Source of the DNA: Candidatus Latescibacterota bacterium | GTDB taxonomy: Bacteria; Latescibacterota; UBA2968; UBA8231 | Assembly: GCA_965217585.1 (NCBI GenBank) | Contig: OZ244561.1 | Location: 6,432,001 to 6,496,000, forward strand | Reading direction: 5' to 3' | Length of the DNA: 64,000 bases | Part shown: in pieces, positions 24,812 through 40,848 of the stretch | Layout: the number at the start of each line of letters is the position of its first letter | How positions within the stretch are numbered: position 1 is the stretch's first letter | The notes under the pieces: model-generated | The model's database searches: none | What the model saw: the letters and a program-made list of their open reading frames with translations, nothing else | Told to the model about the DNA's origin: nothing | Position numbers and translations under genes: made by a program

Positions 24812-25522
24812 TTATTTTGCCACCTTCATTCTGGCCTTGAGCTGGGCCAGCGAATCATCGACCTTGACTCCCTTGCTGTCGGCGAGGGCCTTGTCAATCT
24901 CGTCGTCAACGGCCGTCGCAGCGTCTCCCATATCGCCATAGGCTTCGGCGAGGGCTTCCTGCTCTTCGGCCTTTTCCTTCATCCGTTCGAGCAGGGCCGT
25001 GGTGCCCTTTGAGTCGATGTTAGCCAAGTGCTGGTTGATCTTGCGGGTGGCGTTGGCGGTTTTGGTGCGCGCCTTGAGGGTTACCAGATCGTTTTCGTAC
25101 GAGGCGATTTTCGACTTCAGGTCGTTGACATTGCTCTGTAGCTTGCTGGCCATCGCCTGTTGGGCTTGGGCCTGTTGGGAAGTTTCTGCGTGCCGACTCT
25201 GGGCCTCCTCGACTCGGGCCAGGGATTCGCGCGCCAGGCGATCGGCTTCGGCTTCCTCCATCTGGCCGGACTCGGCCTTTTGCAACAGCAGCATGGCCTT
25301 GCGCTCGTAATCTTCGGCGCGCCGCCGGTGGTCTTCGGACTCGCGGCTGAGCCTGATGGAGATCGCCTTGACCTCGGCGAGTGCCTTGAGGCTCTCCTGC
25401 AAGTCATTTTTTAAGTCGCGGACCGCTTGCTCACTCATCTTGATTGGATCTTCGAGCTTATCCACTAAGGAGTGGGCCTCGGCCTGCCCAGTTTTAAACA
25501 AGCGTTGAAATATACCTGCCAT
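24812..25522 (-). CDS. pspA: PspA/IM30 family protein
   Basis: GIFQRL...LEDPIKM.EQ; long coiled coil; ERMKEK..EQEA.AEA. Confidence 0.93.
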   Translation of the reverse strand: MAGIFQRLFKTGQAEAHSLVDKLEDPIKMSEQAVRDLKNDLQESLKALAEVKAISIRLSRESEDHRRRAEDYERKAMLLLQKAESGQMEEAEADRLARESLARVEEAQSRHAETSQQAQAQQAMASKLQSNVNDLKSKIASYENDLVTLKARTKTANATRKINQHLANIDSKGTTALLERMKEKAEEQEALAEAYGDMGDAATAVDDEIDKALADSKGVKVDDSLAQLKARMKVAK

Positions 25523-25525
25523 GTC

Positions 25526-25927
25526 TTATCCTCCCTCTTTGACGGCAAATCCCAGTAATTCCTCCCCATGCTCGACTAAGCCGAGACCGAGGGAGTTGAT
25601 CGTGCTTTCCAGTTCGTTTAAGTCCAAATTCTCCAGCGCCAGTGTATTGCGATAGAGCAGCGAATCGCCTCCCTCGTTGAGGACAAAGGCACCAAAAACC
25701 AAGTCTCGATTCATCTGCAAAATCCGCTTATACGTCTCGGCGGCTCCAGCAGCGACCTTGATGATAAGCTGCTCGATCACCAGCACCGTATCCTCGCAAT
25801 CAACGACTAGGTTTTGCACCCCTCGCTCCTCGTCGTTGACAATGATGATTTCCTCTTCGGGAATCTCTTCGGCGATGGCAAAGCCAAGCTCGAGGACGTA
25901 CTCCTTTACTGTGGCAAAATCAGCCAT
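25526..25927 (-). CDS. YbjN/CesT-like chaperone-fold protein
   Basis: LQMNRDLVFGAFVL...LENLDLNEL; directly upstream of pspA. Confidence 0.8.
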   Translation of the reverse strand: MADFATVKEYVLELGFAIAEEIPEEEIIIVNDEERGVQNLVVDCEDTVLVIEQLIIKVAAGAAETYKRILQMNRDLVFGAFVLNEGGDSLLYRNTLALENLDLNELESTINSLGLGLVEHGEELLGFAVKEGG

Positions 25928-25953: not shown

Positions 25954-26277
25954 TTAATGGGTCGTCAGGGACTTCTCCAGCTCTTTATAGGCGTGCGTCA
26001 ACTGGGCGCACAGCGCGTTGGCAACCTCGCGCTTGGCCGGCTCCTGTGCGTGGCGGTCGGGGTGGTACTGCTTCATCAACCGCTTCCACGCCGCCTTCAC
26101 CTCCTCCAGACTCGCCCCATAGGGGAGCTCCAGATTGGCGTAATACCCAGCGAGGACCGGGTCTTCGGCAGGTGCGGGGGCCGTCGCCGGGGGCCGCCAG
26201 TGCCCGTAGGCATCGCTCGGCCGACTGGCCGCAGTATGCGCCCGCACGACGCGGAATATGCGCGCAAACAAGTCCAT
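25954..26277 (-). CDS. J-domain (DnaJ-like) protein
   Basis: YYANLEL...VKAAWKRLMKQYHPD...AYKEL. Confidence 0.9.
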   Translation of the reverse strand: MDLFARIFRVVRAHTAASRPSDAYGHWRPPATAPAPAEDPVLAGYYANLELPYGASLEEVKAAWKRLMKQYHPDRHAQEPAKREVANALCAQLTHAYKELEKSLTTH

Positions 26278-26319: not shown

Positions 26320-29300
26320 TCAATAGGCGAGGGAAGAGACGGCCTTTTTAATCATCGCTAGGGCGGCGCTGAACATGCCGATCAGTGACATGCCAACCCC
26401 GAAACCCACGCTCAGAACCATGGCGTAGCGTCGCCATTCTTGCTTGCCGTACTGCTTCCAAAAATAATGCCTAGCCAGCAGGGCACCGATGATTTGCGGA
26501 ATGAGAAAATGCGGAATGCCGTTGACGCTTTGGACGTATCCCCAGACCAGAAAAATCGGCATTCCCAGAAAGGCCAAAGTGAAATACGCCGTCAGACCGA
26601 ATCCCGCGCCGCCGAGGATGATGGGCCACTTCTTGCCGTCGAGGGGATGGTGCGTATCCTCGTCTATCAGACCGTCGCCGTCGTCGTCAACGTTGTTGAG
26701 CAATTCCTCGTCGAGGCCCTCGATATCCCCCGCCCGATAGGCCAGCCCCGGTTGGACAGGCGGCGCGGCGGCCACCCATCCCTCGTGTCGGTCCCCATCC
26801 CGCTCCCATTCGACCAGCACCGCTGCCGCCGTCTCTTCCACAACCGCGGCAAAGGCGGCAACCACCTCCTCGCTGCGCCACGTATCTTGGTCAATGCCTC
26901 GACCATTGACCGTCATAAGGTGGTCGCCGGCTTGCAATCCCAAGCGGTGCCCCAGCCCCTCCCCAGCCACGATGGCGACGCGCACTGCGTCGTATTCGGT
27001 CCACCCCTCGACAAATGAAGTGTCCGCCGCAAACTCAAGTCCCAGTTCTTCTTGTGGCCGGCGCACCACAACTCGACGCATGGTTTTCTCATCCCGTTCC
27101 CAAGCGACAAACACGGAGTCCGCGCCCTGGGTAAAATACCGGTCGATCCGCCCGGTATCCCATTGGGGCACGCGGAGTTCGACGCCGTTTACTGCGAGCA
27201 GGCGGTCGCCTTCCGCCAGCCCGAGCTGGCCACCTACCCCCTCCGACTCCACGCCAGCGACGATGGCCGCGATATTGAGATCGCCGTCGTCGTCCTTGCG
27301 GTCGCCTGTAAAGCGCATATCCCGCCACAGGACCTCAAAGAGCAGGGGTCGGTCCGAGGAGCGCTGCAAAAACTCGCCGTCAAAGCTAGACAGGCGATCC
27401 ACTTCAAAATAGAAGTCAACCGAATCGCCCGGAGCCAGATCAACCGAGATCCGGAAGTTGGGGTTCGGCGTGGCAAGGGCCATGCCGTTGGGAGGCCAAA
27501 GTAGCTGGGGGCCAGCCGACGGCTCAGCGGCGGTCTGCTCGGCGGCTTCCGGGGGTGGCGGAGCGCCCTCGCCGCCGAAGTTGGTGTAGAAGTACCCAGT
27601 CTGCGACCAAGGGCCATAGGTTCGCTTTACCGGATCGGGCACGCCTAAATCTCTGGTGGTGCTCGCCCGCCAGTACCACCAGCGGCCGTCCTGCAAATTG
27701 CTCGGGCTCCACACGGCTTGGCCACCGGGCACAACATCCCCTTCCAACTCCTCCCCAGCGCGCCACATTTTGCTGTACATCGTGCTGGATAAGTAGAGCG
27801 CTTGGTCAAAGGCCCGCAGCGGCCACATTAGCTGCGCGTACGGGTAGCTCTCCGAGGGGATGGGGGCCAAGCGCCAGAGGAAAGTCCAGTACATCAGACT
27901 CACCGCGAAGACGATGGGCAACATAAAGAGCTCGGCCTTGAGCAGGCTGGTAAACTTCATCCCGGTCAGCTCGACGACCCTAAACCCCTCGGCGTGCCCG
28001 CCGAAGTTGCGGGCTGGAAAGGGTACGAACCAGATTTCGACCCCGCGAAAGCCAGTCATAAAGCGGATGGCCTCATCGACATAGGGGATCGCAATCTCCT
28101 TGCCGACTAAGCCATCGAGCCGGGCGCTGACAAAGGACAGAATCGGCGCATAGACAAAGGCGATGAGCACGAAAACTACCAGCAGGCCGGTGCTGACCAA
28201 GGTGGGAAACAGGGTCTTGGCCAAGACGATCGGATAGATCGCCGCCACGCAAAACAGCGCGGCACAGACCCACATATTGAAATCGCCGCGGCCGAGGTGC
28301 TTTAAGCAGTATCCCTTCACTTCGGCCGGGTGGTTGCAGTCCGAGTGCTTGCACACCGTGGGCTGGCCGGCCCCTTGGAGCTGGAGCTTCTCCCGCAGCT
28401 CGGCCTGCTTCTGGCGGCCGGTGCTAAAGAGTTGGTAGAAGCTGACGATGGTGACGGCGATGGTGATGCCAATGGAAAAGGCGCGCCAAAAATCGATCCC
28501 GGTGGCGATCTGGGTGCGGATGGTGTCCATGCCGACTTCCCAGCGCGGTAGATAGCCCAATTCGTAGAGAAAGGGGCTGACGGCCGTGTGCAACACCACT
28601 CCGGAAAAGGAGCCAACCACCGACCAGAAGGGCATGAGCAACCCAGAGAATATCGGCCCCAAGTGCACGGCGATCCCCAGCGGCGTGGCAGGGAGGATGT
28701 TGCCGAGATAGGGCGTCAGATCCCAGAAGGGAATCGGCAAGATCTCCACTTTGGACCCCCAGAGCTGGGTGACCACCGGCACCCCTACGTAGATGGCCCC
28801 GAATGACGCACCGATGGCCGCGCCGATGCTGAACACCGGCCACTTCCACGTCTCCTGCTCAGCCCCGGAATCCTCGGCCAGCGCCATGGCGGCCAGCGCC
28901 GACATCGGCGCGGTCGGAAAGGGCAATTGCTCGCGGTCGGAGGTGAGCCGAAAGAGCATGTAGCCGGAAGTAAACCAAGCGATGCGGCCCATGATCGTCC
29001 CGATCACCAACAGTAGGATCGGGGCCAGCCAGTCGCGATGGATAAAGGTCCGCTCGGCAATAGCCTCTGAATCGGGCGGGGGTGCCCACCACCACGGCAA
29101 AATGCGTGAGATTCCGAATTGCTCGGCTTCGGCCGAGCGCACGAAATACTGACGCCAGAGCAAGTCGAGGAACGCGCCTTCCTCGCGGGCAACCAAGGCC
29201 GAAGCCACGTACACCAGCAGGTAGATTTCCTGGCGCTTGAGCGAGGTAAACGAGCGCTTGGAAACCTCTAAAAAGAGAATCACCGTCACCCATTGCGCTG

Positions 29301-29511
29301 CCGCACCCACGCCGCCACCCGTATATAGCCCGAGAAACATCTCGCCCGGGGTCATAATCAGGGAGATAAAGAGCACGCCGATAATGGTGCGGATCGTAAA
29401 GCCATCCTCAAAGCGGTCGGGGGCTTCGAGCAAGGCTCGGTACTCTTCGACCTCCGCCCACTGGCGCTGCCTTTTTTCTTCTTGACGCCTTTTCTTTTTG
29501 TCGTCGTTCAT
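26320..29511 (-). CDS. OPT-superfamily peptide transporter-like protein with CCCH finger and Ig/PDZ-PDZ insertion
   Basis: FEDGFTIR, EQLPFP, many TMs; two GL..GD.L..VNG PDZ motifs; DDDGDGLIDED. Confidence 0.8.
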   Translation of the reverse strand: MNDDKKKRRQEEKRQRQWAEVEEYRALLEAPDRFEDGFTIRTIIGVLFISLIMTPGEMFLGLYTGGGVGAAAQWVTVILFLEVSKRSFTSLKRQEIYLLVYVASALVAREEGAFLDLLWRQYFVRSAEAEQFGISRILPWWWAPPPDSEAIAERTFIHRDWLAPILLLVIGTIMGRIAWFTSGYMLFRLTSDREQLPFPTAPMSALAAMALAEDSGAEQETWKWPVFSIGAAIGASFGAIYVGVPVVTQLWGSKVEILPIPFWDLTPYLGNILPATPLGIAVHLGPIFSGLLMPFWSVVGSFSGVVLHTAVSPFLYELGYLPRWEVGMDTIRTQIATGIDFWRAFSIGITIAVTIVSFYQLFSTGRQKQAELREKLQLQGAGQPTVCKHSDCNHPAEVKGYCLKHLGRGDFNMWVCAALFCVAAIYPIVLAKTLFPTLVSTGLLVVFVLIAFVYAPILSFVSARLDGLVGKEIAIPYVDEAIRFMTGFRGVEIWFVPFPARNFGGHAEGFRVVELTGMKFTSLLKAELFMLPIVFAVSLMYWTFLWRLAPIPSESYPYAQLMWPLRAFDQALYLSSTMYSKMWRAGEELEGDVVPGGQAVWSPSNLQDGRWWYWRASTTRDLGVPDPVKRTYGPWSQTGYFYTNFGGEGAPPPPEAAEQTAAEPSAGPQLLWPPNGMALATPNPNFRISVDLAPGDSVDFYFEVDRLSSFDGEFLQRSSDRPLLFEVLWRDMRFTGDRKDDDGDLNIAAIVAGVESEGVGGQLGLAEGDRLLAVNGVELRVPQWDTGRIDRYFTQGADSVFVAWERDEKTMRRVVVRRPQEELGLEFAADTSFVEGWTEYDAVRVAIVAGEGLGHRLGLQAGDHLMTVNGRGIDQDTWRSEEVVAAFAAVVEETAAAVLVEWERDGDRHEGWVAAAPPVQPGLAYRAGDIEGLDEELLNNVDDDGDGLIDEDTHHPLDGKKWPIILGGAGFGLTAYFTLAFLGMPIFLVWGYVQSVNGIPHFLIPQIIGALLARHYFWKQYGKQEWRRYAMVLSVGFGVGMSLIGMFSAALAMIKKAVSSLAY

Positions 29512-32500
29512 CAGCTGTGCTCAGTTTCTGCGGGTGCAGCCAACATCTTCTCTGCGACCCCGAGGTGGTGGGCCCTGGACTCCGCGGCCAGCGTGTGCCA
29601 GAGCAGGAACTCTTTCCGCAACCCATTGATAAAGCGGTGGTTGACCCGCTGCCAGAAGGTGTCCTGACCACTGATCCGCTGAATGTAAATCTCCACAGTA
29701 TAGACGGATTTGACCTGGGCGGGCAAAAATTCGAGCTGCATGAACTGGCTCACTCCCATGTCGAACGGCGCCAGCCAGAGCAGGAGCTGCACTGCGTACT
29801 CCGGCCCGCGCTCGCCGTCTTCTTGGACTAATTGGACCTTTTCGGCGTAGAAGTCGCCGATGGACTCTTCGCTATAGGCGCTGAAGTAACCAGCCAAGAA
29901 TCCGCACAGACCCCGCACTTCCCCCTTGCTGACCATAAAGGGGAACTCCATTTCCCAGCGGTCTCCGCTAGGGGCCGGCGGTACCCAGCGACGGACCGTA
30001 TCGGGCACGGCCGTGCGGGCCGCCACCCTAGCCGGATATATAGTCGAAAGCAAGACCACGGCCATCACGATCAGCGACGAGACAATCGCCGCCATAGACG
30101 AGTAATTGAGGCTCAGTCCCTGCAGCAAGTCCAACGCAATGAGTGCTTTGCCCAAACTCTGGCCGAGAATATAGCCCAAGGTAACGCCAATGATCGCATA
30201 GACACATGCCTCGGCCACAAAGAGCAAGGCGATATGCAGCGGTGCCAACCCCACCGATGAGTAAATGCCGATCTCGCGGAAGCGCTCATAGACGGCCCCC
30301 ATCATCGCGTTGAGCACAATCAGCGCAGCGATAAACATCGGTATCACCAAGGCCCCCAAGCCCTCGACATTGGTCAACCCAATTGAGGTATAGGAAAACA
30401 CCTTGGTGGCGGCTTCGCCCGGCTCTTTTAGGCCGGCAAAGAGCGTAATGGCCAGGCGCAGGAGAAAATCCTCGATCAACTCCTGCCCGAGCCCTCCATC
30501 CTCCAGCCGCACCGCCACCGAGCGCAACATGCCCCCCGACTCCCGCAACGTCCCATAGGGCAAGACCAGCACGTTTTCGGATTCTAGGTGGATGAAGGGA
30601 CGAATATCGAGCGCCGACTCATCTAGGGCGATGCTCATATTGTCCTGGGTTACCGGCCCCAGTGCTTGGGCACTCGACATCTGGAAATCCGCCGGCGTCA
30701 GCGACTCGTCGTCGAGGTCGCGGATCGCCTCAAAGAGGTCGGGGTCGAACACGCCCCGCACCACCAAGTCCCGGCCGAATACCCGCACCCTCGCCGTGCC
30801 CAGTTCCGCCGGCCCTATGCCCAGCGCCTCGGCCATGCCCGCGGCCATCAGGCAGGACGCCTCGTCCTCGCGCGTGAAGAAGCTGCCTGCCACCAGCGCT
30901 TGGTCAATGCCGGTGACGCGCACTTCCTCCGGCATCAGCCCCAGCATTCCAGTCGCCCGCACCACCGAAGTATCGCCGAAGACCTCGATGTACTTTTTCT
31001 GCTCGTCGTCAAAGGCGACATACCAGTTCCGCGGCACGACCACTCCTTCGGTGGCGAAGTGGGAACGGGCATAGTCGAGCGTCGGGCGATTTAGCACGTT
31101 CCAATTGCGGTCGCGGATCAGCACCCCTTCGTAGGTCCCCTCGTGGTCCATCGCAAAGGCCATATAGCGGATCTGGGTATTGAACGAGGTGAAGGAGAGC
31201 ACCGTAAAGGTGAGCAGGACCAAGGTCAGCAAGGTCAGCCCGGTGCGCAGCTTGCGCCGACGCATATTGGAAATGCCGAGCATAAAGGCCGCGTAGCTAG
31301 CACTGGCGCGGCTGATATCGGTCTCGTGGACGTGGGCTTCCCTCGCCTGATACGCCTTCATATAGCTATTGAAGCGAGTGCTAATCATCGCCATGACAAA
31401 GGCCGCCATCGCCATGATTGCAAAGGCCAGCAAAATCACCAGCGGATGGGCGATGGCAAAGGCCGGGTGAACCTGGGAAATGGCGATCCAGATCAAAAGC
31501 AACAATCCCCCAAACCCCGCTAGCTGCCTGCGAATATCGGCTGCCGCAAACAGCAACCGCTCCCCCAGAAAGGCCGTTGGGATGACTAAGGCGAGAAAAA
31601 ACACCATGCCGCTGATGACGTCGTTGAGCGTCTGTAGCACTTCTGGGTACGCGCGGGCCGTCACTCCCAGCGCGGCCCGGACGTGCTCGACATAGCGCTC
31701 CCAATCCCTGGCCTCTTCGGCCTGTCGCGCCTGTTCGATCAGCCCCTTGCCGCGTTGGTGCAACCGGGCTAGGCGCTGGTTTTCAATGGCGTTCTCGCGC
31801 AAGGTGTGCAGCCGCGCCTCGTTGAGCTGCCACATGTCCTCGACGGCCAGCATTCCCGTGCGGACCAGCGAGTCCCGCCTTAGCGAGTAGCCCCGCCCGC
31901 GCGCCTGCGCCACGCTTTCTGTGCCTTCGCTGTTGAGTAGGAGCAGGCGGTTGTCGACGATCATCTTGATGCCCTCGTCCTCGTCGGCATCCTGTGGCCC
32001 AAAGACCACGCCAACGGCCTCGCCCTCGTCAAACCCCCGCGCCAACCCGAACTGCCGCGGCTGCACCCCGTTCTGATCGACGATCTTGATCCCCTTGAAT
32101 GACCGGAGATAGCGCGGGTCGATCATGCTGTAAAAGGGCCGCGAGATACTGGGAAAGACGACGATGATCTTTTCGTTGGTATTCCAGCGAATTTGGCTGT
32201 CGATCATCCACCCATTCACGATCCCGCCGCTGAACTTTGTCGCCCTTTCCGAAAGATCGGGCGCAAATGCAATCCCTCCGGTGCTCGGATCGACTTGGTA
32301 GGCCGCCACCGGATAGGCTCCAGTCCGCAAGCCGTCGATATCGGCGACGCCTTGGTCATCCGTGAGGTGGTACTGCGCCCCGCGCACCCCCTTGTGGGAT
32401 TTGTACCAGGGATCGATTACGACAACCGCGTCGGCGATCGGACGGTCCGGCACTTGGCTGCGGCGCGGGAACGTGCGCACCTTGACCCGCAGGGAGCGCA

Positions 32501-33911
32501 ATTTGTCCTTGAGTACGGGATCAAAGTCTTCGAGATCGGCAAACAGGGCCTCGTCGTTTACTGCCCGCGCCAGCATGGCGTTGAGCAGGCGGCTTTGGCG
32601 GGACAAATTTTCGATATTCATCCGCTCAGGCGTATCGAGCGGGGTATCGACGATATAGCGAGCATCGTTGACAGTAACAAACGACAGCGAGACGATCCCA
32701 GCGGTCAGCGCATGCTCCCCACTGACCGAGACCCCGCCCGGCACGAAGGTCGACCAGTCCATGCCGCGAATCGGGCTGATCCCATTGGCCAGCGGCCGCT
32801 CCTGCTCCAGGCCCAACCGAGCGGCTTCCTCCTCGGCATAGGCCGTAAAACGCCGCCCAAAGGGCACGAAAAATCGCTTGAGATCATAGCTAAAGGTATT
32901 GTTCCAGATTCCCAGCCCAGCGGACTGGCTCGTCAGATCAATGCAGATGAAGAGCTTGGGCTTGAGTGGTTCTTCCATCCGCTCGGCGTAGTGGGGATGG
33001 CGGCGGGCGTGGCGCTCGAGGAAGTGGACAATCCCCTGCTGAGCTTGGAAATGCGCGCCTGTGGCCACCAGCACGACCGGCCGGCGCGGGGGATGGCGCA
33101 CTAGATGCTCGGCCAGCGCCAGCAACGCGGCGATACCGCTGGTCGTTTCGGCCGCCGGGGCCAAGGCTGGCACCACCGACATGCCGTCGTAGTAGCTTTC
33201 GATGATAATGGTCTCGTCGGCCAGGTCTGGATCGGTGCCGGGGAGCCGGCCCCAGATATTCCAAGCCGTCTCGCGCTGCCAGTCCATCCGCCCCTTGAGC
33301 ACTACGGAAGTCGGTTGCTGGAGCAGCCGCTCTTTTAGCCGCAGCCCGGCCGCTCTTGCGATCCAGAAGCGCGGGATGTCCAGCGGCGCGGTGGAGTACT
33401 TGGCCGTGGCTTGATTGCGCGTAGTCTCCTCTGGGGCGATAAAGACGATGGCGCGCGCGCCCAGCGAAGCGGCCTGCAACCAGCGGCTCCAGCTATTGAA
33501 CTCCATCAGCACCACCCGGCCGTCGAGTTCGAGCCCCGCGTACTCCTCCCACTCGCCGTCCCCGCCGTAGATCATCTCGCCCGCGTACTCGGGCAGGGTC
33601 GAGGTGCGGACTAAGTTCGGCCACAGGCTGTAGAGGCCATAGCGCTCCCCACTCTCTGTGAGGAGTAACTCGCCCCCGTGGTCGATAGGCACGGTGACCT
33701 CAAAGGATTCGCGCGCGACCTGTGCAAACCCAATCTCGCGCAGGCGTTGCTCGACGTAATCCGCGGCCGCGGCCGCTCCGGGATAGCCGCTCACCCTAGA
33801 GCCGAGCGAGGACAGGTAAGCGACGGTTGCGCGCACCCCGTCCTCGCGCGCCCAACCGCAGTTTGCGGTCAGCACGAGGGCGCAGACGATGTAGTAAGCC
33901 GAGTGCTTCAT
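29511..33911 (-). CDS. Large PA / pseudo-M28 peptidase domain fused to an FtsX-like permease
   Basis: Signal peptide; SRVSGYPG...AADY; N-RRRKLRT; VYERFREIGIYSSVGL (FtsX); ATG at 33911 overlapping the upstream TGA. Confidence 0.82.
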   Translation of the reverse strand: MKHSAYYIVCALVLTANCGWAREDGVRATVAYLSSLGSRVSGYPGAAAAADYVEQRLREIGFAQVARESFEVTVPIDHGGELLLTESGERYGLYSLWPNLVRTSTLPEYAGEMIYGGDGEWEEYAGLELDGRVVLMEFNSWSRWLQAASLGARAIVFIAPEETTRNQATAKYSTAPLDIPRFWIARAAGLRLKERLLQQPTSVVLKGRMDWQRETAWNIWGRLPGTDPDLADETIIIESYYDGMSVVPALAPAAETTSGIAALLALAEHLVRHPPRRPVVLVATGAHFQAQQGIVHFLERHARRHPHYAERMEEPLKPKLFICIDLTSQSAGLGIWNNTFSYDLKRFFVPFGRRFTAYAEEEAARLGLEQERPLANGISPIRGMDWSTFVPGGVSVSGEHALTAGIVSLSFVTVNDARYIVDTPLDTPERMNIENLSRQSRLLNAMLARAVNDEALFADLEDFDPVLKDKLRSLRVKVRTFPRRSQVPDRPIADAVVVIDPWYKSHKGVRGAQYHLTDDQGVADIDGLRTGAYPVAAYQVDPSTGGIAFAPDLSERATKFSGGIVNGWMIDSQIRWNTNEKIIVVFPSISRPFYSMIDPRYLRSFKGIKIVDQNGVQPRQFGLARGFDEGEAVGVVFGPQDADEDEGIKMIVDNRLLLLNSEGTESVAQARGRGYSLRRDSLVRTGMLAVEDMWQLNEARLHTLRENAIENQRLARLHQRGKGLIEQARQAEEARDWERYVEHVRAALGVTARAYPEVLQTLNDVISGMVFFLALVIPTAFLGERLLFAAADIRRQLAGFGGLLLLIWIAISQVHPAFAIAHPLVILLAFAIMAMAAFVMAMISTRFNSYMKAYQAREAHVHETDISRASASYAAFMLGISNMRRRKLRTGLTLLTLVLLTFTVLSFTSFNTQIRYMAFAMDHEGTYEGVLIRDRNWNVLNRPTLDYARSHFATEGVVVPRNWYVAFDDEQKKYIEVFGDTSVVRATGMLGLMPEEVRVTGIDQALVAGSFFTREDEASCLMAAGMAEALGIGPAELGTARVRVFGRDLVVRGVFDPDLFEAIRDLDDESLTPADFQMSSAQALGPVTQDNMSIALDESALDIRPFIHLESENVLVLPYGTLRESGGMLRSVAVRLEDGGLGQELIEDFLLRLAITLFAGLKEPGEAATKVFSYTSIGLTNVEGLGALVIPMFIAALIVLNAMMGAVYERFREIGIYSSVGLAPLHIALLFVAEACVYAIIGVTLGYILGQSLGKALIALDLLQGLSLNYSSMAAIVSSLIVMAVVLLSTIYPARVAARTAVPDTVRRWVPPAPSGDRWEMEFPFMVSKGEVRGLCGFLAGYFSAYSEESIGDFYAEKVQLVQEDGERGPEYAVQLLLWLAPFDMGVSQFMQLEFLPAQVKSVYTVEIYIQRISGQDTFWQRVNHRFINGLRKEFLLWHTLAAESRAHHLGVAEKMLAAPAETEHS

Positions 33912-36064
33912 GCCCAAAAAATAGAGTTCCCCACTTTTCCCGTGAAGTAATCTATGACCAACCAAAGTCCATTACACGAAACCTGCCCGCAGATCAGCCC
34001 TAGAAAAAACATCTGACTGCGGCGGTACAAGGCCACCCCGCCGAAGCGCATGATCATCTTCTTGATAAACCAAGCCAAGAACACGCTAAACCACACGTGG
34101 TTGAGCATGCCGTTGGCCCCAATGGGAAAGCCGATGGGATGCACGGGCCACCAAGGCAGGCGCTGCCGCGCCCACATCATCGCCACCATCACCAGCCCGC
34201 CACCGGACAAAAACCCCAGCCCCGGCCAGTACGCGCCCGCCGGCTCCATGTTGCGGAGCGCGTTGTTGTAGGCGGTTTCAGGTGCGCCTTTGAAAAACCA
34301 ACCGTTGAGGTTTACCCCGCCGTGCTGATAGGCCATGTGGAAAATCATCCAAAACGAACCGAGGGCCCCGATGAACAGCGAGAGAATAATAGCCCAAAAC
34401 ACCAGCCGCCGCAGCCTCGGCTCCATCTCCTCGATCAGCTTGAGGGCGTTGGTGCAGGTTGCCATGACGAACACCCGTATATCCGCGCCCCACATATAGG
34501 CCAACGACAAGTTCCACACCCCAGTCCGGCTCACCAGATCGGTCCCCAACCCTAGGATCACCAAGTCGGGTGCCGTCATCGGGGCGCGCACGGCCGCTAG
34601 GCCGGCTTCGGCGACGATCCGCGTAATCCCCAGAAAGACGAGCAGGGCCAAGACGACAAAAACAAACGCCACCCACAGCGGCGTCCCCATGATCCACAGC
34701 CACCACGACATGACCAAGACCCCGCCCACAGCGCCGAAAAAAGACCAGCGATAGGACATGATCTCATCCCCATCCTCCACCTCTGGTGCCCATCCGAGGG
34801 CCTTTTTACACACATTGCGAAAGTGTTCCCTCCCCACCCACAGGCCAACCCCGACCATGGCCAGCAAGGCACCGACCCCTTGGTAGGCCATCAGAGAAAC
34901 GTCGGCTACACCGAAGACGACCTTCTGCTCGGACGTCACGCCGGCCAGCGCGAAAAGCTCCTTTTCAAACTTGGCCAAGAGGTGAAAGAACCAAATACCA
35001 GCGGCGATATTGGCATTGATGAAGTACGAAAAGCCGACCATGGCAAAGCTGACGGTCAGTTGCAAGGTCTGCTTGCCCACCAAGGAGATCGACGAAGTCA
35101 GGGAGAAGACCGGAAAAGCCGCGTCGTAGCGGTGCAGTGCCTTCAAGCTGCCAAAAAAAATCGGTAAAATAAAACCGGCCCACATCGCCGGCTGGCGAAA
35201 AAAGGTATTGATCTTAAGCCCGCGTTCCTCTCCGCGCACCATCGCCAGCCCTACCTGAGTAATGGGATAGGGCAGCCGCTCGCGTTCCATCCACTGCCGG
35301 CGAACGATAACCGCGACCGACACCATGGTAACGTACAGTGCCAAGAGAAAGATCGCCCACCAGCACAGAGGCTCGACCCACGCCGCGTAGGGAATCGTCT
35401 CCTCAGGTACCAGCCCTTCGTAAAAGGTCTTGCTGTCGTGCCCGTCGTTGACGAGTACCTGACGCGCGGAAAAATGGGGGAAAAGCTCTTCCTGCCACTT
35501 GTTTTCCGGCGAGGCAAAGTAAAACACCGCCGTGATCATCGGCAGAATTTGTTCGCTCAGGCCCATGGTGCAAAGAGCCGAGACGATCAGCAGCATGACG
35601 TACACGAGAATCAGCTCGGCCCGATTGAGTACCAAATTCCGCCCGGAAAAGACCAACCCCATATTGAGCAGGGACGAGGCGAGGATGAAGGTGGCAAAGA
35701 AAAAACCGGGGGCAAAGGGATCGAGGGGAGCCACCCACCCATAGTAGAAGCTGTAAAGCGCACAGGAGATCAAGGCCCAAACCACTGCGCCCGGCGGGCT
35801 AGCGGCGACCTTGAACAGCACATTGAGCAGCCCGATGAGCACTAGAAACAAAAAAATGGCCCCCGGTGTACTGAAGTCCAAGGCCATGTAGGAGCCGCGT
35901 ATGATCATGTTGCCGTACGGAGCGCCGACAGCTAGGAAAAAGCTGAGAAATGCCCCCACCCAAAACGCACGCATGGTTAGCTGCTGGGTACCGGGCGGCG
36001 CAAGAAGGGCTTGGTCGCGCCCGGCGAGGTGGTTCAGGTAGTGAATCGGCAAGTGTCTTAGCAA
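33908..36064 (-). CDS. DUF6785/DUF6784-like polytopic membrane protein (OPT-like)
   Basis: RRQWMERERLPYP, RIVAEAG, WWPVHPIG, FFLGLI.G. Confidence 0.8.
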   Translation of the reverse strand: MLRHLPIHYLNHLAGRDQALLAPPGTQQLTMRAFWVGAFLSFFLAVGAPYGNMIIRGSYMALDFSTPGAIFLFLVLIGLLNVLFKVAASPPGAVVWALISCALYSFYYGWVAPLDPFAPGFFFATFILASSLLNMGLVFSGRNLVLNRAELILVYVMLLIVSALCTMGLSEQILPMITAVFYFASPENKWQEELFPHFSARQVLVNDGHDSKTFYEGLVPEETIPYAAWVEPLCWWAIFLLALYVTMVSVAVIVRRQWMERERLPYPITQVGLAMVRGEERGLKINTFFRQPAMWAGFILPIFFGSLKALHRYDAAFPVFSLTSSISLVGKQTLQLTVSFAMVGFSYFINANIAAGIWFFHLLAKFEKELFALAGVTSEQKVVFGVADVSLMAYQGVGALLAMVGVGLWVGREHFRNVCKKALGWAPEVEDGDEIMSYRWSFFGAVGGVLVMSWWLWIMGTPLWVAFVFVVLALLVFLGITRIVAEAGLAAVRAPMTAPDLVILGLGTDLVSRTGVWNLSLAYMWGADIRVFVMATCTNALKLIEEMEPRLRRLVFWAIILSLFIGALGSFWMIFHMAYQHGGVNLNGWFFKGAPETAYNNALRNMEPAGAYWPGLGFLSGGGLVMVAMMWARQRLPWWPVHPIGFPIGANGMLNHVWFSVFLAWFIKKMIMRFGGVALYRRSQMFFLGLICGQVSCNGLWLVIDYFTGKVGNSIFWA

Positions 36065-36167
36065 GTGGAGCCCCCGCTGTATCGTGCTAGCTTGTTATAA
36101 TAAGCTGCTTAACCGATTGGGACAACGCGAGTTGACGGCATTGGTATTGGGGGGTTTTTTCCTAGGT

Positions 36168-37295
36168 ATGGAATTCGACTTCCTCCAGCTCGCCCGTCCG
36201 CTCATCCGCGCCCCCACAGCCCCTTTCCACGAGCATTTTGCCTTCGGCATCGCGCGCTCATTCGCAGCCGCGCGGCCTCTAATCCAAATGCTCCACGACC
36301 GCTGTGGTAACAGCTTGCTGCTCTACGACGGCGGAGGCCAACAGGAGGAAGACGAATTTATCGTCTTGACCGCTCATCTCGACCACCCCGGCTTAGTGTG
36401 GAGAACCTCACAGAGGCCAGGCCGAGCGCTGTTCGAAATCCTCGGCGGCGTTGAGCTAGAGCAGGCTCTAGCGACGGGCGTGCGCATATTCAACCTGAAT
36501 CGCCCGGCTACCCAGCGCGGCACCTCCGGGACCATCGTCCGAACGGTGGAAGACGAAGGAGCGCGCTATCCCCTAGTTGAAGTGGCCGCAGCACGCGATA
36601 GCTTCCAAGGCCCGGGGACCTTTGCGATGTGGGATTTGCCGGCTTTTAGGGTGCGGGGTCGGCGCTTGAGCGGGCGGGCGATCGACGATTTGGCCGGTGC
36701 GGCCGTGGCTTTGTGCGTCTTGGATTCCTTGGTGCGCCAGCAAGCCTCGGCCCGCGTCGGCGTCTTGCTCACGCGTGCTGAAGAGGTAGGTTTCGTCGGC
36801 ATGCTCGCCGCGCTAGAGGCCAAGTTCTTGCCTCGACGCGCACTCTACATCAACATCGAGTGCTCTAGCGTGGCGGCTGGAGCGGTGCTGGGCGCGGGGC
36901 CGATCTTGCGAGTCGGCGATCGGCTCTGGGTGTTCGACCCGGACATCAGCAGCGGGATGGCTGCACTGGCTGACGAATTGGCCTCCCAACAGCCCTCTTT
37001 CCACTACCAACGCAAGCTGATGGATAGCGGTGCTTGCGAAGCCACCCCGCTGATGCAGGCCGATTATCGCACGGGCGCGGTTGCGCTGCCCCTCGGCAAC
37101 TATCACAACTCGGGCCCGGGCGCGCAATTGGCCCCCGAGTACATCGACCTCGACGACGCCAACAGCCTGGTGCGCCTCCTCGTCCACGTGGCCCAACGCG
37201 GCATTGGCACAGGGCTGGCGCATTCGGCCGCTGCGCTCGACTCGATGCTCGCCGGCCGCCTAGCGCAATACCGCGACCGCCTACTCCCCCTGTAG
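36168..37295 (+). CDS. M20/M28/M42 family metallopeptidase
   Basis: AHLDHPG, RAIDDLAG, RAEEVGFVG, IECS, GNYHN; metal ligands intact. Confidence 0.85.
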   Translation: MEFDFLQLARPLIRAPTAPFHEHFAFGIARSFAAARPLIQMLHDRCGNSLLLYDGGGQQEEDEFIVLTAHLDHPGLVWRTSQRPGRALFEILGGVELEQALATGVRIFNLNRPATQRGTSGTIVRTVEDEGARYPLVEVAAARDSFQGPGTFAMWDLPAFRVRGRRLSGRAIDDLAGAAVALCVLDSLVRQQASARVGVLLTRAEEVGFVGMLAALEAKFLPRRALYINIECSSVAAGAVLGAGPILRVGDRLWVFDPDISSGMAALADELASQQPSFHYQRKLMDSGACEATPLMQADYRTGAVALPLGNYHNSGPGAQLAPEYIDLDDANSLVRLLVHVAQRGIGTGLAHSAAALDSMLAGRLAQYRDRLLPL

Positions 37296-37317: not shown

Positions 37318-40300
37318 CTACTGACGTGAAGCGATAGAAGCAAGTCGCCAGAGCAGGACCGTGCCATCCCATGACCCGGATGCCAGCGTGGAGCCGTCCG
37401 GAGAAAATGACACGGAAGATATCCAAGCCGCATGTCCTTGCAGAGTGGCTAGTTGACTTTCACTCCATACATCCCAAAGGATCACATCGTTGACCCAGCC
37501 CCCTGACGCCAGCATGGAGCCGTCCGGAGAAAATGACATGAATTCAACCCTCTCCGTATGCCCTTGCAAGGTGGCCAACTGACTGCGACTCGACACATCC
37601 CAAAGGATCACGTTGCCGTCCCGTCCCCCGGATGCCAGCATGGAGCCGTCCGGAGAAAATGACACGGATTCGACCACAGACCTATGTCCTTGTAGGATGG
37701 CCAACTGACTACGACTCGATACGTCCCAAAGGACCACGTTGCCGTCCACTTTCCCCAACGCCAGTATAGAGTCGTCCGGAGAAAATGACACGGACCAGAC
37801 TCTATCTGTAGACCTTTGCAGGGTGGCTAGTTGACTACCACTCGATACATCCCAAAGGATCACATCGTCGTCCCGTCCCCCGGACACCAGCAGCGAGCCA
37901 TCCGGAGAAAATGACACCGGCCCTCTCCCTTGCAGGATGGCCAGTTGCCTGCGACTCGATACGTCCCGAAGAACTACGCCGCCCCCCCTTCCGGCTAACG
38001 CCAACACAGAGCCATCCGGAGAAAATGACACCAGACTGCCCCCGTTCAGGGTAGCCAGTTGCCTGCGACTCGATACGTCCCAAAGAACTACGTCAACCCC
38101 CCCTCCGGCTGCCAACACAGAGCCATCCGGAGAAAATGATACAGATTCGACCCTCTCCGTATGCCCTTGCAGAGTGGCTAGTTGAATGAGACTCGATACA
38201 TCCCAAAGGATCACATCGTCGTCCCGTCCCCCGGACACCAGCAGCGAGCCATCCGGAGAAAATGACACCGGCCCTCTCCCGTTCAGGGTAGCCAGCTGAC
38301 TGCGACTCGATACGTCCCAAAGAACTACGTCGGATCCCCCTCCGGACACCAGCACGGAGCCGTCCGGAGAAAACGATATGGATTCGATCCGCCATCTATG
38401 CCCTTGCAGAGTGGCTAGCTGACTTTCACTCCATACATCCCAAAGGATCACCGTGCCGTCCTCTGCCCCGGACGCCAGCACGGAGCCGTCCGGAGAAAAT
38501 GATATGGAAGAAACCATCTCTGTATGCCCTTGCAGAGTGGCTAGTTGACTATCGCTCCATACATCCCAAAGGATCACCGTGCCGTCCTCTGCCCCGGACG
38601 CCAGCACGGAGCCGTCCGGAGAAAACGATATGGAAGAAACCCAAACCGCATGTCCTTGCAGGGTGGCTAGTTGACTACCACTCGATACATCCCAAAGGAT
38701 TGCCTTATCCCATGACCCGGACGCCAGCACGGAGCCGTCCGGAGAAAACGATACGGAAGAAACCCCAACCGCATGTCCTTGCAGAGTGGCTAGTTGACTA
38801 CCACTCGATACATCCCAAAGGATTACCGTGCCGTCCTCTGCCCCGGACGCCAACATGGAGCCGTCCGGAGAAAACGATACGGAAGAAACCCCAACCGCAT
38901 GTCCGGAGAGAAGCGCCAGTTCACGGTAGGTCGCCACATCGTACAGCCAGATACCAATGCTGCTAGCCACCGCTAGCACCTGCCCATTGGGCGAGAACGC
39001 CACAGCCTCAACCCTTCCTTTTCCCAAGCGGGCGAGGGCCCCCTCCGGCAAATGCCTCGTTGTATAATCGGCGACATCCAAGCCATCTGTAGAAGAAATC
39101 TCGCCGCCTTCCTCCCGAAGCTCCATCGCGTAAATTTTGCCGTCGCGCCCAGAATCAAAAACGATGTGGCGGCCATCGGGCGACCAAGAGGGAGAAAAGT
39201 CCCATGCCGTGTGGTGGGTCAAGCGGGTCGGGTTGCTGCCATCAGAACCCATCACGTAAATCTCCCCATTGCCGTCGCGCTCGGATACAAAGGCGATGCG
39301 GCGGCCATCGGGCGACCAAGAGGGAGAAAAGTCCCATGCCGAATGGTCGGTCAAGCGGGTCGGATTGCTGCCATCAGAACCCATCACGTAAATATCGAAG
39401 TTATCGTCGCGCTCGGATACAAAGGCGATGCGGCGGCCATCGGGCGACCAAGAGGGAGAAAAGTCACCGGCCGGGTCGTCGGTCAAGCGGGTCGGGTTGC
39501 TACCATCGGAACCCATCACGTAAATCTCCCCATTGCCGTCGCGCTCGGATATGAAGGCGATGTGGCGGCCATCGGGCGACCAAGAGGGAGAAAAGTCGTC
39601 GGCCGGGTCGTCGGTCAAGCGGGTCGGGTTGCTGCCATCGGAACCCATCACGTAAATCTCCCCATTGCCGTCGCGCTCGGAATAAAAAACGATGTAGCGG
39701 CCATCGGGCGACCAAGAGGGAGAAAAGTCGTCGGCCGGGTCGTCGGTCAAGCGGGTCGGGTTGCTGCCATCGGAACCCATCACGTAAATATCGAAGTTAT
39801 CGTCGCGGCGGGACATGAAGGCGATGTGGCGACCATCGGGCGACCAAGAGGGAGAAAAGTCCCATGCCGAATGGTCGGTCAATCGGCGTAGGGCCCCGGC
39901 TACCAAGTTTCCGCCACCAACCGCCTGCCCAATCCCCATCGGCAGCGACGGATCGGACGGATTGGCACTATAGGCCGCAATCAGCAGCACGTCGGCGGTC
40001 GTAAGCTGGCCGTCGGCATTGACATCGCCGAGACTGATATCGCCGTTATTCGGCGGCGTTATAGACGGATCAATAATGTACAATGCCACCGCCAGCGCGT
40101 CGGCCAGATCAACTTGGCCGTCGGCATTGACATCGCCCAAAATGCCGCCGGTCAGCACCTTCGCCCGCAGCGCACTAGCCAGCGTTTCCACCACAATGTC
40201 TACCGGTGCCATCCCTACGCGAAAATCCGCATCCACGTAGGTCGCCAGTCCCGCACCCACAACGGCGAGACCATACTTCCGGTCCGCTGCTTCGGTTGAG

Positions 40301-40848
40301 AACGTCGCCGCTGGAGCCGCGCCGGCCACCACCCCGGCCTGTCCATCAATGAGCACCATCCGCCGCGTATGCCGCTCCCCACCCGCTGTCAGCCGGTACA
40401 TATACACCCCGGCGGCCACCGCCTGCCCGGCCGCATTTGTCGCGTCCCAAACCGCCGCGTGAAAACCCGCCGGCCGCTCCTCATCCACCAGCGTCGCAAC
40501 CCGCTGCCCCAGTACATTGAACACCTCCAGCCGCACCTGCGCGGCAGTCGGCAATTGATACGGAATAATCGTCGAAGGATTGAACGGATTCGGATAATTC
40601 TGCCCCAGCGCAAACCCCTGCGGCCGCGCAGGGCCACCCAACGGCGCCAGCGCGAAATAGCCCGCCGCATCGGTCGTCGCCCGCGCCACCGGCCCGCGCT
40701 GCAAATCCGTCAGATCGAACAACAGCACCTGCGCCGCTGCCGCCGCTTGGCCTGCAGAAAGACGCACCCGTCCCTCCACCAATGGCTCGGCGACAGCAGG
40801 GGCCGACAACGCCAGCCCGACCAAAACGGCGACTGATGTCTGCATCAT
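37318..40848 (-). CDS. Secreted multidomain protein: T9SS-CTD/FlgD-Ig, dockerin, 6 PD40 repeats, 14 WD40 repeats
   Basis: QNYPNPFNPST; two GDVNADG dockerin halves; SPSWSPDG x6; SFSPDG...LWDV x14. Confidence 0.9.
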   Translation of the reverse strand: MMQTSVAVLVGLALSAPAVAEPLVEGRVRLSAGQAAAAAQVLLFDLTDLQRGPVARATTDAAGYFALAPLGGPARPQGFALGQNYPNPFNPSTIIPYQLPTAAQVRLEVFNVLGQRVATLVDEERPAGFHAAVWDATNAAGQAVAAGVYMYRLTAGGERHTRRMVLIDGQAGVVAGAAPAATFSTEAADRKYGLAVVGAGLATYVDADFRVGMAPVDIVVETLASALRAKVLTGGILGDVNADGQVDLADALAVALYIIDPSITPPNNGDISLGDVNADGQLTTADVLLIAAYSANPSDPSLPMGIGQAVGGGNLVAGALRRLTDHSAWDFSPSWSPDGRHIAFMSRRDDNFDIYVMGSDGSNPTRLTDDPADDFSPSWSPDGRYIVFYSERDGNGEIYVMGSDGSNPTRLTDDPADDFSPSWSPDGRHIAFISERDGNGEIYVMGSDGSNPTRLTDDPAGDFSPSWSPDGRRIAFVSERDDNFDIYVMGSDGSNPTRLTDHSAWDFSPSWSPDGRRIAFVSERDGNGEIYVMGSDGSNPTRLTHHTAWDFSPSWSPDGRHIVFDSGRDGKIYAMELREEGGEISSTDGLDVADYTTRHLPEGALARLGKGRVEAVAFSPNGQVLAVASSIGIWLYDVATYRELALLSGHAVGVSSVSFSPDGSMLASGAEDGTVILWDVSSGSQLATLQGHAVGVSSVSFSPDGSVLASGSWDKAILWDVSSGSQLATLQGHAVWVSSISFSPDGSVLASGAEDGTVILWDVWSDSQLATLQGHTEMVSSISFSPDGSVLASGAEDGTVILWDVWSESQLATLQGHRWRIESISFSPDGSVLVSGGGSDVVLWDVSSRSQLATLNGRGPVSFSPDGSLLVSGGRDDDVILWDVSSLIQLATLQGHTERVESVSFSPDGSVLAAGGGVDVVLWDVSSRRQLATLNGGSLVSFSPDGSVLALAGRGGGVVLRDVSSRRQLAILQGRGPVSFSPDGSLLVSGGRDDDVILWDVSSGSQLATLQRSTDRVWSVSFSPDDSILALGKVDGNVVLWDVSSRSQLAILQGHRSVVESVSFSPDGSMLASGGRDGNVILWDVSSRSQLATLQGHTERVEFMSFSPDGSMLASGGWVNDVILWDVWSESQLATLQGHAAWISSVSFSPDGSTLASGSWDGTVLLWRLASIASRQ
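37345..39015 (-). repeat. WD40-coding tandem repeats (about 114-126 bp units)
   Basis: Recurrent tccggagaaaa and catcccaaaggat motifs, near-identical at the DNA level. Confidence 0.9.
39120..39890 (-). repeat. PD40-coding tandem repeats (132 bp x about 6)
   Basis: Recurrent ccatcgggcgaccaagagggagaaaagtc every 132 bp. Confidence 0.92.

Follow-up and report, generated by a model that had tools for sequence, protein, structure and literature searches.

What does an FtsX/MacB-type permease do when its gene is wedged between the genes of two polytopic membrane proteins, and what drives it when no ATPase gene lies beside it? This question is raised by three reverse-strand genes in a 64,000-nucleotide stretch from Candidatus Latescibacterota bacterium (the window; positions 6432001-6496000 of the single 7.32-Mb contig). 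In the order of transcription they are gene C (33908..35974; 688 aa from the ATG at 35974, in an open reading frame that stays open up to a TTG at 36064), gene B (29511..33911; by translation a multidomain permease of 1466 aa from the ATG at 33911, MKHSAYY..., with a hydrophobic N-terminus) and gene A (26320..29511; a polytopic membrane protein of 1063 aa). A first-pass annotation, made from the sequence alone, had proposed that the three genes are translationally coupled, and both overlaps can be read directly: the stop of C and the start of B share the ATGA at 33908-33911, and the stop of B and the start of A the TGATG at 29509-29513. It had also pointed to a motif common to A (REQLPFP, residues 193-199) and C (RERLPYP), which is present and presumably of OPT type, E(R/Q)LP(F/Y)P. 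These gene-level observations are confirmed; the interpretation built on them is partly supported. We suggest that C-B-A is the membrane core of a multi-subunit ATP-binding cassette (ABC) system of type VII (MacB/LolCDE/FtsEX class), with its ATPase encoded elsewhere in the genome and with ATP-driven capture of peptides, a reading to which we give about an even chance of being right.

Gene B had been described as a PA and M28-like region fused to an FtsX/MacB-type permease, and profile, Pfam and Foldseek searches all support this description. From the N-terminus, B consists of a hydrophobic segment, the M28 and PA-like domain, about 400 residues without a match, three transmembrane (TM) helices, a MacB/LolC-type module and a tail of 165 residues. 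The module (residues ~887-1301; 30009..31253, on the reverse strand like every part of A, B and C) was placed by Pfam FtsX (45.6 bits, E 9e-12, cut-off 25.5) and Foldseek. It runs in the order TM1, Porter/Sabre-like periplasmic domain, TM2, coupling helix (VYERFREIG), TM3 and TM4. An AlphaFold2 (AF2) model of B residues 745-1466 (pLDDT 76.5, pTM 0.45) gave 46 Foldseek matches at E<=1e-3, among them MacB (5gko, E 7e-12), LolC/E, HrtB, YtrF, YbbP and the MacB periplasmic domain 3ftj (TMt 0.59, rmsd 3.7). According to the model, B has the fold of a type VII ABC (MacB/FtsX-type) permease, its periplasmic domain being inserted between TM1 and TM2. Between TM2 and TM3, B carries the coupling motif VYERFREIGIYSSVGLAP, in which E465, R466, I470, G477, A479 and P480 are invariant in 20 sequences; in the MacB and LolCDE structures this motif contacts the nucleotide-binding domain (NBD). 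Three additional helices (residues ~756-859; 31335..31646; helices 12-43, 49-70 and 79-115 in model numbering), placed by the model and hydropathy, lead from the ectodomain to the module. Behind the module, alignment and model delimit a cytoplasmic alpha/beta tail (residues ~1302-1466; 29514..30008) with the motif WLAPFDxG, whose W635, L636, A637, P638, D640 and G642 are invariant (alignment numbering) and whose strands and helices lie at model positions 574-717. The tail has no P-loop and no Pfam or NCBIfam match.

The extracytoplasmic M28 and PA-like domain (residues ~40-335; 32907..33794) was recognised with a profile of the seven own-genome B paralogs, which matched the PDB entries 2ek8 (E 9e-16, query 40-322), YwaD (3e-13), AAP (6e-7), Nicalin (1e-5) and Nicastrin (0.8); 2ek8 and YwaD are M28 aminopeptidases with a PA insert. 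The Pfam PA and M28 models have no match to the window B itself, and relatives of B carry a precomputed PF04389. The metal site is degenerate. In the alignment with AAP, H97 pairs with Y240 (His in two of the seven paralogs), the bridging Asp of DxxSG with the invariant E255, E151 with the invariant H287 and E152 with F288, and the last metal-ligand His is not conserved among the paralogs. The M28 set of co-catalytic ligands and general base (H, D, E-E, D, H) is not found in B, and this alignment suggests that the ectodomain is likely a pseudo-peptidase.

Both outer proteins had been called OPT-like, and for C the structural model bears this out. C matches Pfam DUF6785 (PF20581; 344.5 bits, E 1e-102, cut-off 25) and DUF6784 (PF20580; 100.3 bits, E 7.5e-29, cut-off 26.4), with no Pfam match to PF03169 (OPT), and a single-sequence PDB search with C found nothing. 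The AF2 model, built on 14 own-genome paralogs (pLDDT 80.5, pTM 0.83), has two Foldseek matches in the PDB at E<=1e-3, both to barley Yellow Stripe 1 (7wsr_A/7wst_A). Against 7wsr_A the match has E 6e-6, probability 1.00 and TM-scores of 0.51/0.57, and the next match has E 4e-3 and a TM-score of 0.12. The fold predicted for C is thus the OPT fold. For A the link is only indirect, through C: hhalign aligns the A family with the C family over 202 columns that include the shared motif (probability 91.6%, E 8e-7), which suggests that A is a distant relative of C and the OPT superfamily. A Pfam OPT match at the C-terminus of A (18.4 bits, E 9e-4) lies under the cut-off of 25.8 and is seen in one of the five paralogs, the PDB profile search with the A family gave no match, and a single-sequence PDB search with A gave weak PDZ matches only. 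An ESM Atlas lead for A ('Peptide transporter family protein', 0.78) fell under the 0.9 line and was not used as evidence. Counting TM helices by hydropathy is too crude to fix the topology of A and C.

Apart from two PDZ domains, A contains no family above threshold. The PDZ pair (residues ~750-890; 26842-27264; PDZ_6 32.5 bits with cut-off 27, PDZ 28 bits with cut-off 23.2, both Pfam) sits in an acidic insertion of about 390 residues (residues ~575-960; 26632..27789), which was delimited by the alignment of A paralogs. The insertion is missing from three of the four other paralogs; in the fourth, a shorter insert lacks the PDZ region. Since the loop is acidic (D+E 69 vs K+R 35), the insertion is probably periplasmic.

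The three-gene arrangement is not due to chance, since it recurs in paralogous and orthologous loci. According to phmmer, the genome itself encodes seven B, five A and 78 C paralogs; all five A genes are in B loci, each of the seven B genes has a C next to it or nearby, and one encodes a B-C fusion of 2118 aa. Among 168 genomes labelled Latescibacterota, B is found in 155 and DUF6785 in 154. Both are missing from the family f10 (0/13 genomes each), whose members are kin, so that this absence counts as one event. Two surveys covered other genomes, with genes called by simple open-reading-frame scripts and families assigned by hidden Markov models built from the own-genome paralogs; the surveyed loci are related to one another, and the counts overstate their independence. 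Among 20 loci from 18 other genomes, chosen by their B match, A is adjacent in 15 and C present in 16. A pattern scan of 185,579 species genomes yielded at least 578 confirmed relatives among at least 597 matched stretches. In the best 80 loci, which were analysed, B is followed by A in 54 and accompanied by a separate C in 32, and B and C are fused in 11, none of the 11 with A; 73 of the 80 have A, C or a fusion at B. According to their submitters' labels, these loci come among others from Latescibacterota, Gemmatimonadota/-etes, Omnitrophota, Ratteibacteria and Nitrospirota. A protein database search found 1212 proteins at E<=1e-3 among 7993 candidates scored. Those with a name are annotated as 'FtsX-like permease', 'M28 family peptidase' or 'ABC transporter permease', or as hypothetical, and 18 of the 120 database proteins listed combine FtsX with DUF6785.

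A, B and C are a conserved co-occurring module. In the fusions, C follows directly after the B tail, and the gene fusions argue for a physical association of B and C. At L031, L095 and L099 the frame of C is open backwards through about 4 kb of B in another frame; the resulting open reading frames of 2084-2208 aa are not fusions. Across the seven own B loci no further conserved partner recurs, except for a trio of a 330-aa protein, PqqD and a 206-aa protein at the 4.27-Mb paralog. A consensus-level promoter and terminator scan, which was not used to define the operon, gave 9 promoter-like sites (4.3 expected) and no intergenic terminator.

The first-pass annotation had stated that no ABC ATPase lies in the block, and indeed none of the 85 PF00005 matches of the genome is in the window; the closest one lies 103.6 kb away from B. 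It had gone on to picture a system working without an ATPase, and here relatives of the locus tell otherwise. Six of the 20 loci of the first survey have a LolD/FtsE-class ATPase gene of 262 aa about 0.7 kb upstream of C-B-A on the same strand (order NBD-C-B-A); they are six of the eight loci of family f3 in that survey. Following the f3 ATPase led to one f4 genome with the same NBD-C-B-A order and to an f11 contig with the order C-TPR-B-A-293aa-PqqD-shortFtsX-NBD. Six of the 80 loci of the second survey hold an ATPase. Four of these (L141, L144, L149, L150) are tight operons of B, A, PqqD (115-122 aa), a short FtsX (214 aa) and NBD (243-245 aa), L137 has the same B, A, PqqD, short FtsX and NBD genes in a looser arrangement, and in L148 the NBD lies upstream of B. 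As a side observation, in the compact operons of unclassified metagenome-assembled genomes (L141:15910-17124; L144, L149) the gene next after the ATPase encodes a GAF-GGDEF diguanylate cyclase.

In the genome itself, a single FtsX-class NBD stands without an FtsX gene next to it. This orphan (5231577-5232326) is flanked by uvrB and a PIN-domain gene, and its Walker A/B, signature and H-loop are intact. A short FtsX and NBD pair is found at 4649594-4651089, and this short FtsX is the closest non-B relative of the FtsX domain of B in the genome. Nearly all other own-genome FtsX genes either have a PF00005 match at a distance of 0.4-5 kb or belong to an array that contains two ATPases; the duplicated-FtsX gene 783640 is, like the B genes, far from any PF00005 match. 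The tandem array (G000:C1:2848000-2896000) comprises about 20 duplicated-FtsX genes of ~790-846 aa each, with two ABC ATPase genes at 2851215 and 2872775. In a maximum-likelihood tree of NBDs, a single clade (99/96) unites the orphan with the NBDs linked to C-B-A (100/98) and those linked to a short FtsX (96/96). The tree does not resolve the split among the three, nor whether the orphan is an ortholog of the cis NBDs. In the B-less f10 genomes the best match to the orphan NBD has E 4e-61 or weaker, vs ~1e-76 to 1e-89 in most other families, a few incomplete genomes excepted. Taken together, the ATPase genes in clusters of relatives, the unlinked own-genome ATPase of the same clade and the retained coupling motif weaken the earlier picture of an ATPase-independent system, and a trans-encoded ATPase common to the seven B paralogs is more likely than an ATPase-free machine.

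In the mechanism that we propose, B would be the mechanotransmitting permease, with one FtsX-type four-helix module and a MacB-like periplasmic domain, and its M28-PA pseudo-peptidase domain, similar to nicastrin and the transferrin receptor, would serve as the receptor. A and C would be OPT-fold polytopic proteins in complex with B. As motor, a LolD/FtsE-class ATPase would dock on the coupling helix of B, potentially the orphan at 5231577-5232326 and/or the short FtsX and ATPase pair at 4649594-4651089, and one unlinked ATPase may serve all seven B paralogs. Peptides or protein termini would be captured in the periplasm in an ATP-driven step, passed to the OPT-fold subunits and moved across the inner membrane. 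We infer a single complex, a peptide substrate and the inward direction, as well as the particular ATPase serving the window locus. The OPT fold, the M28-like domain, the PDZ pair, a PqqD-family chaperone and the M42 peptidase neighbour together suggest the peptide theme. The PqqD-family peptide chaperone is encoded in 28 of the 80 loci; in the own genome the only PqqD match lies right behind the paralogous C-B-A at 4.27 Mb, as the middle member of the trio, whose 330-aa and 206-aa proteins are found in 23 and 20 of the 80 loci, respectively.

Several findings weigh against this proposal. All seven own B genes are 18-104 kb from any PF00005 match, a cis ATPase is present in 0/11 loci of f1, the window's own family, and 74 of the 80 public loci have none; because no ATPase lies within about 8-10 kb in all these loci, the trans partner is an assignment and not an observation. 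The conserved 165-residue cytoplasmic tail of B sits where the NBD would dock. The orphan NBD stands on a long branch in the unresolved three-way split of the tree, and its clear orthologs (82-98% identity) are limited to f1. The link of A to the OPT superfamily is thin, with a Pfam match under the cut-off in one paralog out of five and no PDB profile match. MacB-type systems are not known to move substrates across the inner membrane, and the proposed hand-over to OPT-fold subunits has no known precedent. When B(745-1466) was predicted in complex with the orphan NBD, the ipSAE was 0.40 (0.42/0.40/0.39; best of 3 controls 0.00), with a partner pLDDT of at least 75 and at least 59% of contacts shared between runs. 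The docking lends the proposal weak support, as its score is only a weak pass: of 157 solved complexes 116 attain the mark, as do 2 of 215 mismatches, values at or under 0.60 include 18 of the 157 and both mismatches, and, as LolCDE and MacB are solved, the predicted docking may reflect likeness to them.

The distance between B and any PF00005 match could also be explained if B were a receptor-permease without an NBD, A and C proton-driven importers, and the B ectodomain a device that captures or senses for them. The private conserved tail of B could stand in for the NBD, OPT proteins are proton symporters, and orphan FtsX permeases form large families, one of which (ADOP) has a weak NCBIfam match to B. 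We nevertheless consider this explanation unlikely, as several lineages have LolD-class ATPase genes within the cluster, the FtsX motif for NBD coupling does not vary in B, the genome has an orphan NBD of the matching clade, and the B-less f10 is without close members of that clade. An ATPase could also drive work outside the membrane. Every type VII ABC system characterised so far either works at the periplasmic side or outer leaflet or regulates hydrolases, and C-B-A might then be an outward-acting or housekeeping envelope machine, i.e., a MacB/Lol/FtsEX-like extractor or regulator that clears peptides or proteins out of the membrane or periplasm, takes part in envelope quality control or uses ATP to gate its fused hydrolase-like domain, with A and C as scaffolds. 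Similarity of the M28-like domain to Nicalin (E 1e-5) and, less clearly, to Nicastrin (E 0.8) fits such a role, both being non-catalytic membrane-complex subunits; PspA, YbjN-like and DnaJ-domain genes follow A in orthologous loci, and SurA-like peptidyl-prolyl isomerases adjoin 5 of 20 sampled C paralogs and one A paralog. The Psp neighbours are, however, present in only 9-10 of the 80 loci, no HlyD/MacA-type adaptor or outer-membrane factor occurs among the scanned neighbours, the OPT fold is a transporter fold, and 78 C paralogs suit nutrient uptake better than a single housekeeping task, which makes such a machine, in our estimate, a shade more improbable still.

Least of all do we expect a role in the export or processing of a ribosomally made peptide (RiPP-like), which has only a slight chance of being correct. 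PqqD-family leader-peptide chaperones and MacB-class exporters are typical of RiPP clusters. The PqqD-family protein of the 28 loci brings this role to mind, as its best NCBIfam matches are lasso, GeoRSP and PQQ peptide chaperones, all under cut-off, and the NBDs have good scores, likewise under cut-off, with the ATPase models of darobactin and bacteriocin exporters. Against it, the scanned clusters contain no precursor-peptide gene, radical-SAM enzyme, cyclase or leader protease, the window locus is without a PqqD gene, and seven B paralogs with 78 C genes are unlike a biosynthetic cluster. Peptide capture by an ATP-driven C-B-A core thus stays our preferred explanation. Its bolder form, a new transporter class in which a type VII ABC mechanotransducer is joined or fused to OPT-fold channels and a pseudo-peptidase receptor, driven by cytoplasmic ATP hydrolysis, feeds peptides or protein termini into a secondary-transporter-like pore, is conceivable but rather doubtful; in that case the stand-alone DUF6785 genes (78 here) would be the principal set of nutrient-uptake genes in Latescibacterota.

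B shares with MacB and the type VII class the four-helix FtsX fold, the Porter/Sabre-like domain between TM1 and TM2 and the TM2-TM3 coupling motif. MacB gives the best structural matches (5gko and 3ftj), and clusters of relatives encode an ATPase of the MacB/LolD class. Unlike MacB, the own-genome B proteins have no fused or adjacent NBD; B has about 750 extra extracytoplasmic residues, three extra helices and the cytoplasmic tail, its scanned neighbours include no MacA-type adaptor, its partner genes encode OPT-fold proteins and are sometimes fused to it, and it scores 32 bits vs a cut-off of 966 for NCBIfam MacB. LolCDE consists of two FtsX-type permeases and the LolD ATPase. Distant relatives of the locus encode B, a short FtsX (214-233 aa) and a LolD-like ATPase, and this joint encoding, as in LolCDE, suggests a heterodimer of B and the short FtsX. 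In contrast to LolCDE, a periplasmic domain is missing from the short FtsX, B reaches 24 bits vs the LolC cut-off of 473, and there is no link to lipoproteins. FtsEX with EnvC/PcsB/RipC also couples an FtsX module to a hydrolase-like periplasmic element and uses ATP hydrolysis for work outside the membrane; in B, by contrast, the hydrolase-like domain is on the same polypeptide with degenerate metal ligands, and there is no cell-division gene context.

For the outer proteins the comparison is with the OPT/Yellow-Stripe-like family. Barley YS1 (7wsr) is the only PDB fold matched by the C model, and A has the sub-threshold OPT match at its C-terminus. C differs from the family in belonging to DUF6785/DUF6784 without a PF03169 match, and A stays under the Pfam cut-off. 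The OPTs characterised so far are proton symporters that function alone, with no ABC-type permease at their side or fused to them. Nicastrin, Nicalin and the transferrin receptor resemble B in having an M28 fold that has lost its metal ligands and in being membrane-complex subunits. These proteins are eukaryotic and single-pass, whereas the stronger matches of B are the bacterial PA-containing aminopeptidases 2ek8 and YwaD. The ADOP permeases (TIGR03434) are large families of FtsX-type paralogs that also lack an adjacent ATPase; B differs by its single FtsX module and by 17.5 bits vs the 622-bit cut-off.

No characterised system with this layout, which the first-pass annotation had likewise not known, was found in print. 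A full-text literature search returned no paper on DUF6785/DUF6784, no paper combining three of PqqD, FtsX, M28 and OPT was found, and nothing relevant to Latescibacteria with OPT and FtsX was among the publications listed. The accessible part of the 2015 Latescibacteria genome paper mentions oligopeptide ABC transporters, and in this part OPT, FtsX and MacB have 0 occurrences. The parts are known folds. What appears to be undescribed is how they are combined, that they can be fused and how far DUF6785 has expanded. On present understanding, type VII ABC systems do their work solely outside the inner membrane, and OPTs act alone on the proton gradient. If true, a conserved and sometimes fused type VII-OPT pairing would be a new way of building a transporter. 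It would give the first functional handle on DUF6785/DUF6784, with dozens of copies per genome in an uncultured phylum, and on a bacterial nicastrin-like pseudo-peptidase. The locus is also a warning against taking an FtsX protein to be ATPase-free because its operon has no ATPase gene.

The expansion of C varies among genomes. The own genome of 7.3 Mb has its 78 paralogs as DUF6785 matches, and first-look counts of DUF6785 candidates in related genomes range from 1-3 up to 68. At about 9 loci of 20 sampled C copies, the neighbours include paired secreted proteins of 620-1150 aa with C-terminal FlgD_ig/CHU_C domains (type IX secretion-like), often with F5/8 type C. Among the other neighbours of the 20 copies are SurA-like isomerases at 5, FG-GAP/ASPIC at 4, TPR at 4 and PhyH dioxygenases at 3. 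A polysaccharide-uptake role for the 78 paralogs was dropped, as the neighbours of the 20 copies have 0 glycoside-hydrolase Pfam matches and one sulfatase.

Gene D (36168..37295, forward strand), divergent from C, had been described as a metallopeptidase with intact ligands and as a possible cytoplasmic peptidase of the system. Its family and orientation stand: it is an M42-family aminopeptidase according to Pfam (64.4 bits, E 1e-17, cut-off 23.2), and it matches TET1 in the PDB (E 1.5e-7). The ligands are kept at the H, D, EE and last-H positions. The description as intact is less certain at the fourth position, an Asp in M42 peptidases, which pairs with the Asn of 'YINIE' against 1vho and with a gap against 2cf4. 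Membership in the system is not supported. D lies beside 3 of the 20 and 11 of the 80 surveyed B loci, all 11 of them among the 20 loci most like the window B, so only beside close orthologs; it is missing in one same-genus B locus, and phmmer finds no second D in the own genome. D is a lineage-specific neighbour and not a core part.

Downstream of A, after a gap of 42 bp, reverse-strand genes encode a DnaJ-domain protein of 107 aa (25954-26277), a YbjN/CesT-like protein of 133 aa (25526-25927) and PspA/IM30 of 236 aa (24812-25522), all according to Pfam. Synteny of this set extends to the orthologous loci L027-L030 and L081-L089, and its 9-10 occurrences among the 80 loci are confined to close orthologs. 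PspA/IM30 is followed by an amine oxidase and then a membrane-bound spermine-synthase-like protein. On the other side, a 1176-aa protein with PD40 and at least 12 WD40 repeats adjoins D (37318-40848, reverse strand) and is absent there in the same-genus loci L027-L029.

Six metatranscriptome runs from three studies, two of them labelled sponge metagenome, contain contigs with the C-B-A stretch or near relatives of it. Sequence near-identical or ~95%-like to window positions 28000-36000 is present in runs of 8 studies, including sponge-labelled metatranscriptomes. Contigs from four runs bridge both junctions (A/B records 3, 12, 17 and 28; B/C records 6, 13 and 21). These are contigs with possible DNA carry-over, which are no proof of transcript, strand or level and in which coverage gaps are meaningless.

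Other genes were noted near paralogs of B and C. The 0.14-Mb locus has neighbours of 413, 1142 and 258 aa, and its likeness to the window is coincidental, the genes being CreD-like, a helicase and HamA. The HamA-family protein (258 aa) adjoins the 1142-aa DEAD/Helicase_C/HIRAN protein in what looks like a Hachiman-type defence pair beside the B-C fusion (G000:C1:145621-149812; L009:15621-19812). AAA_15/AAA_21 (OLD/AbiEii-like) ATPase genes adjoin one B paralog (L012:14118-15449) and one C paralog (L047:10039-11412), and PemK/MazF, PIN, HEPN/nucleotidyltransferase and Fic genes are scattered among the own B and C paralog loci.

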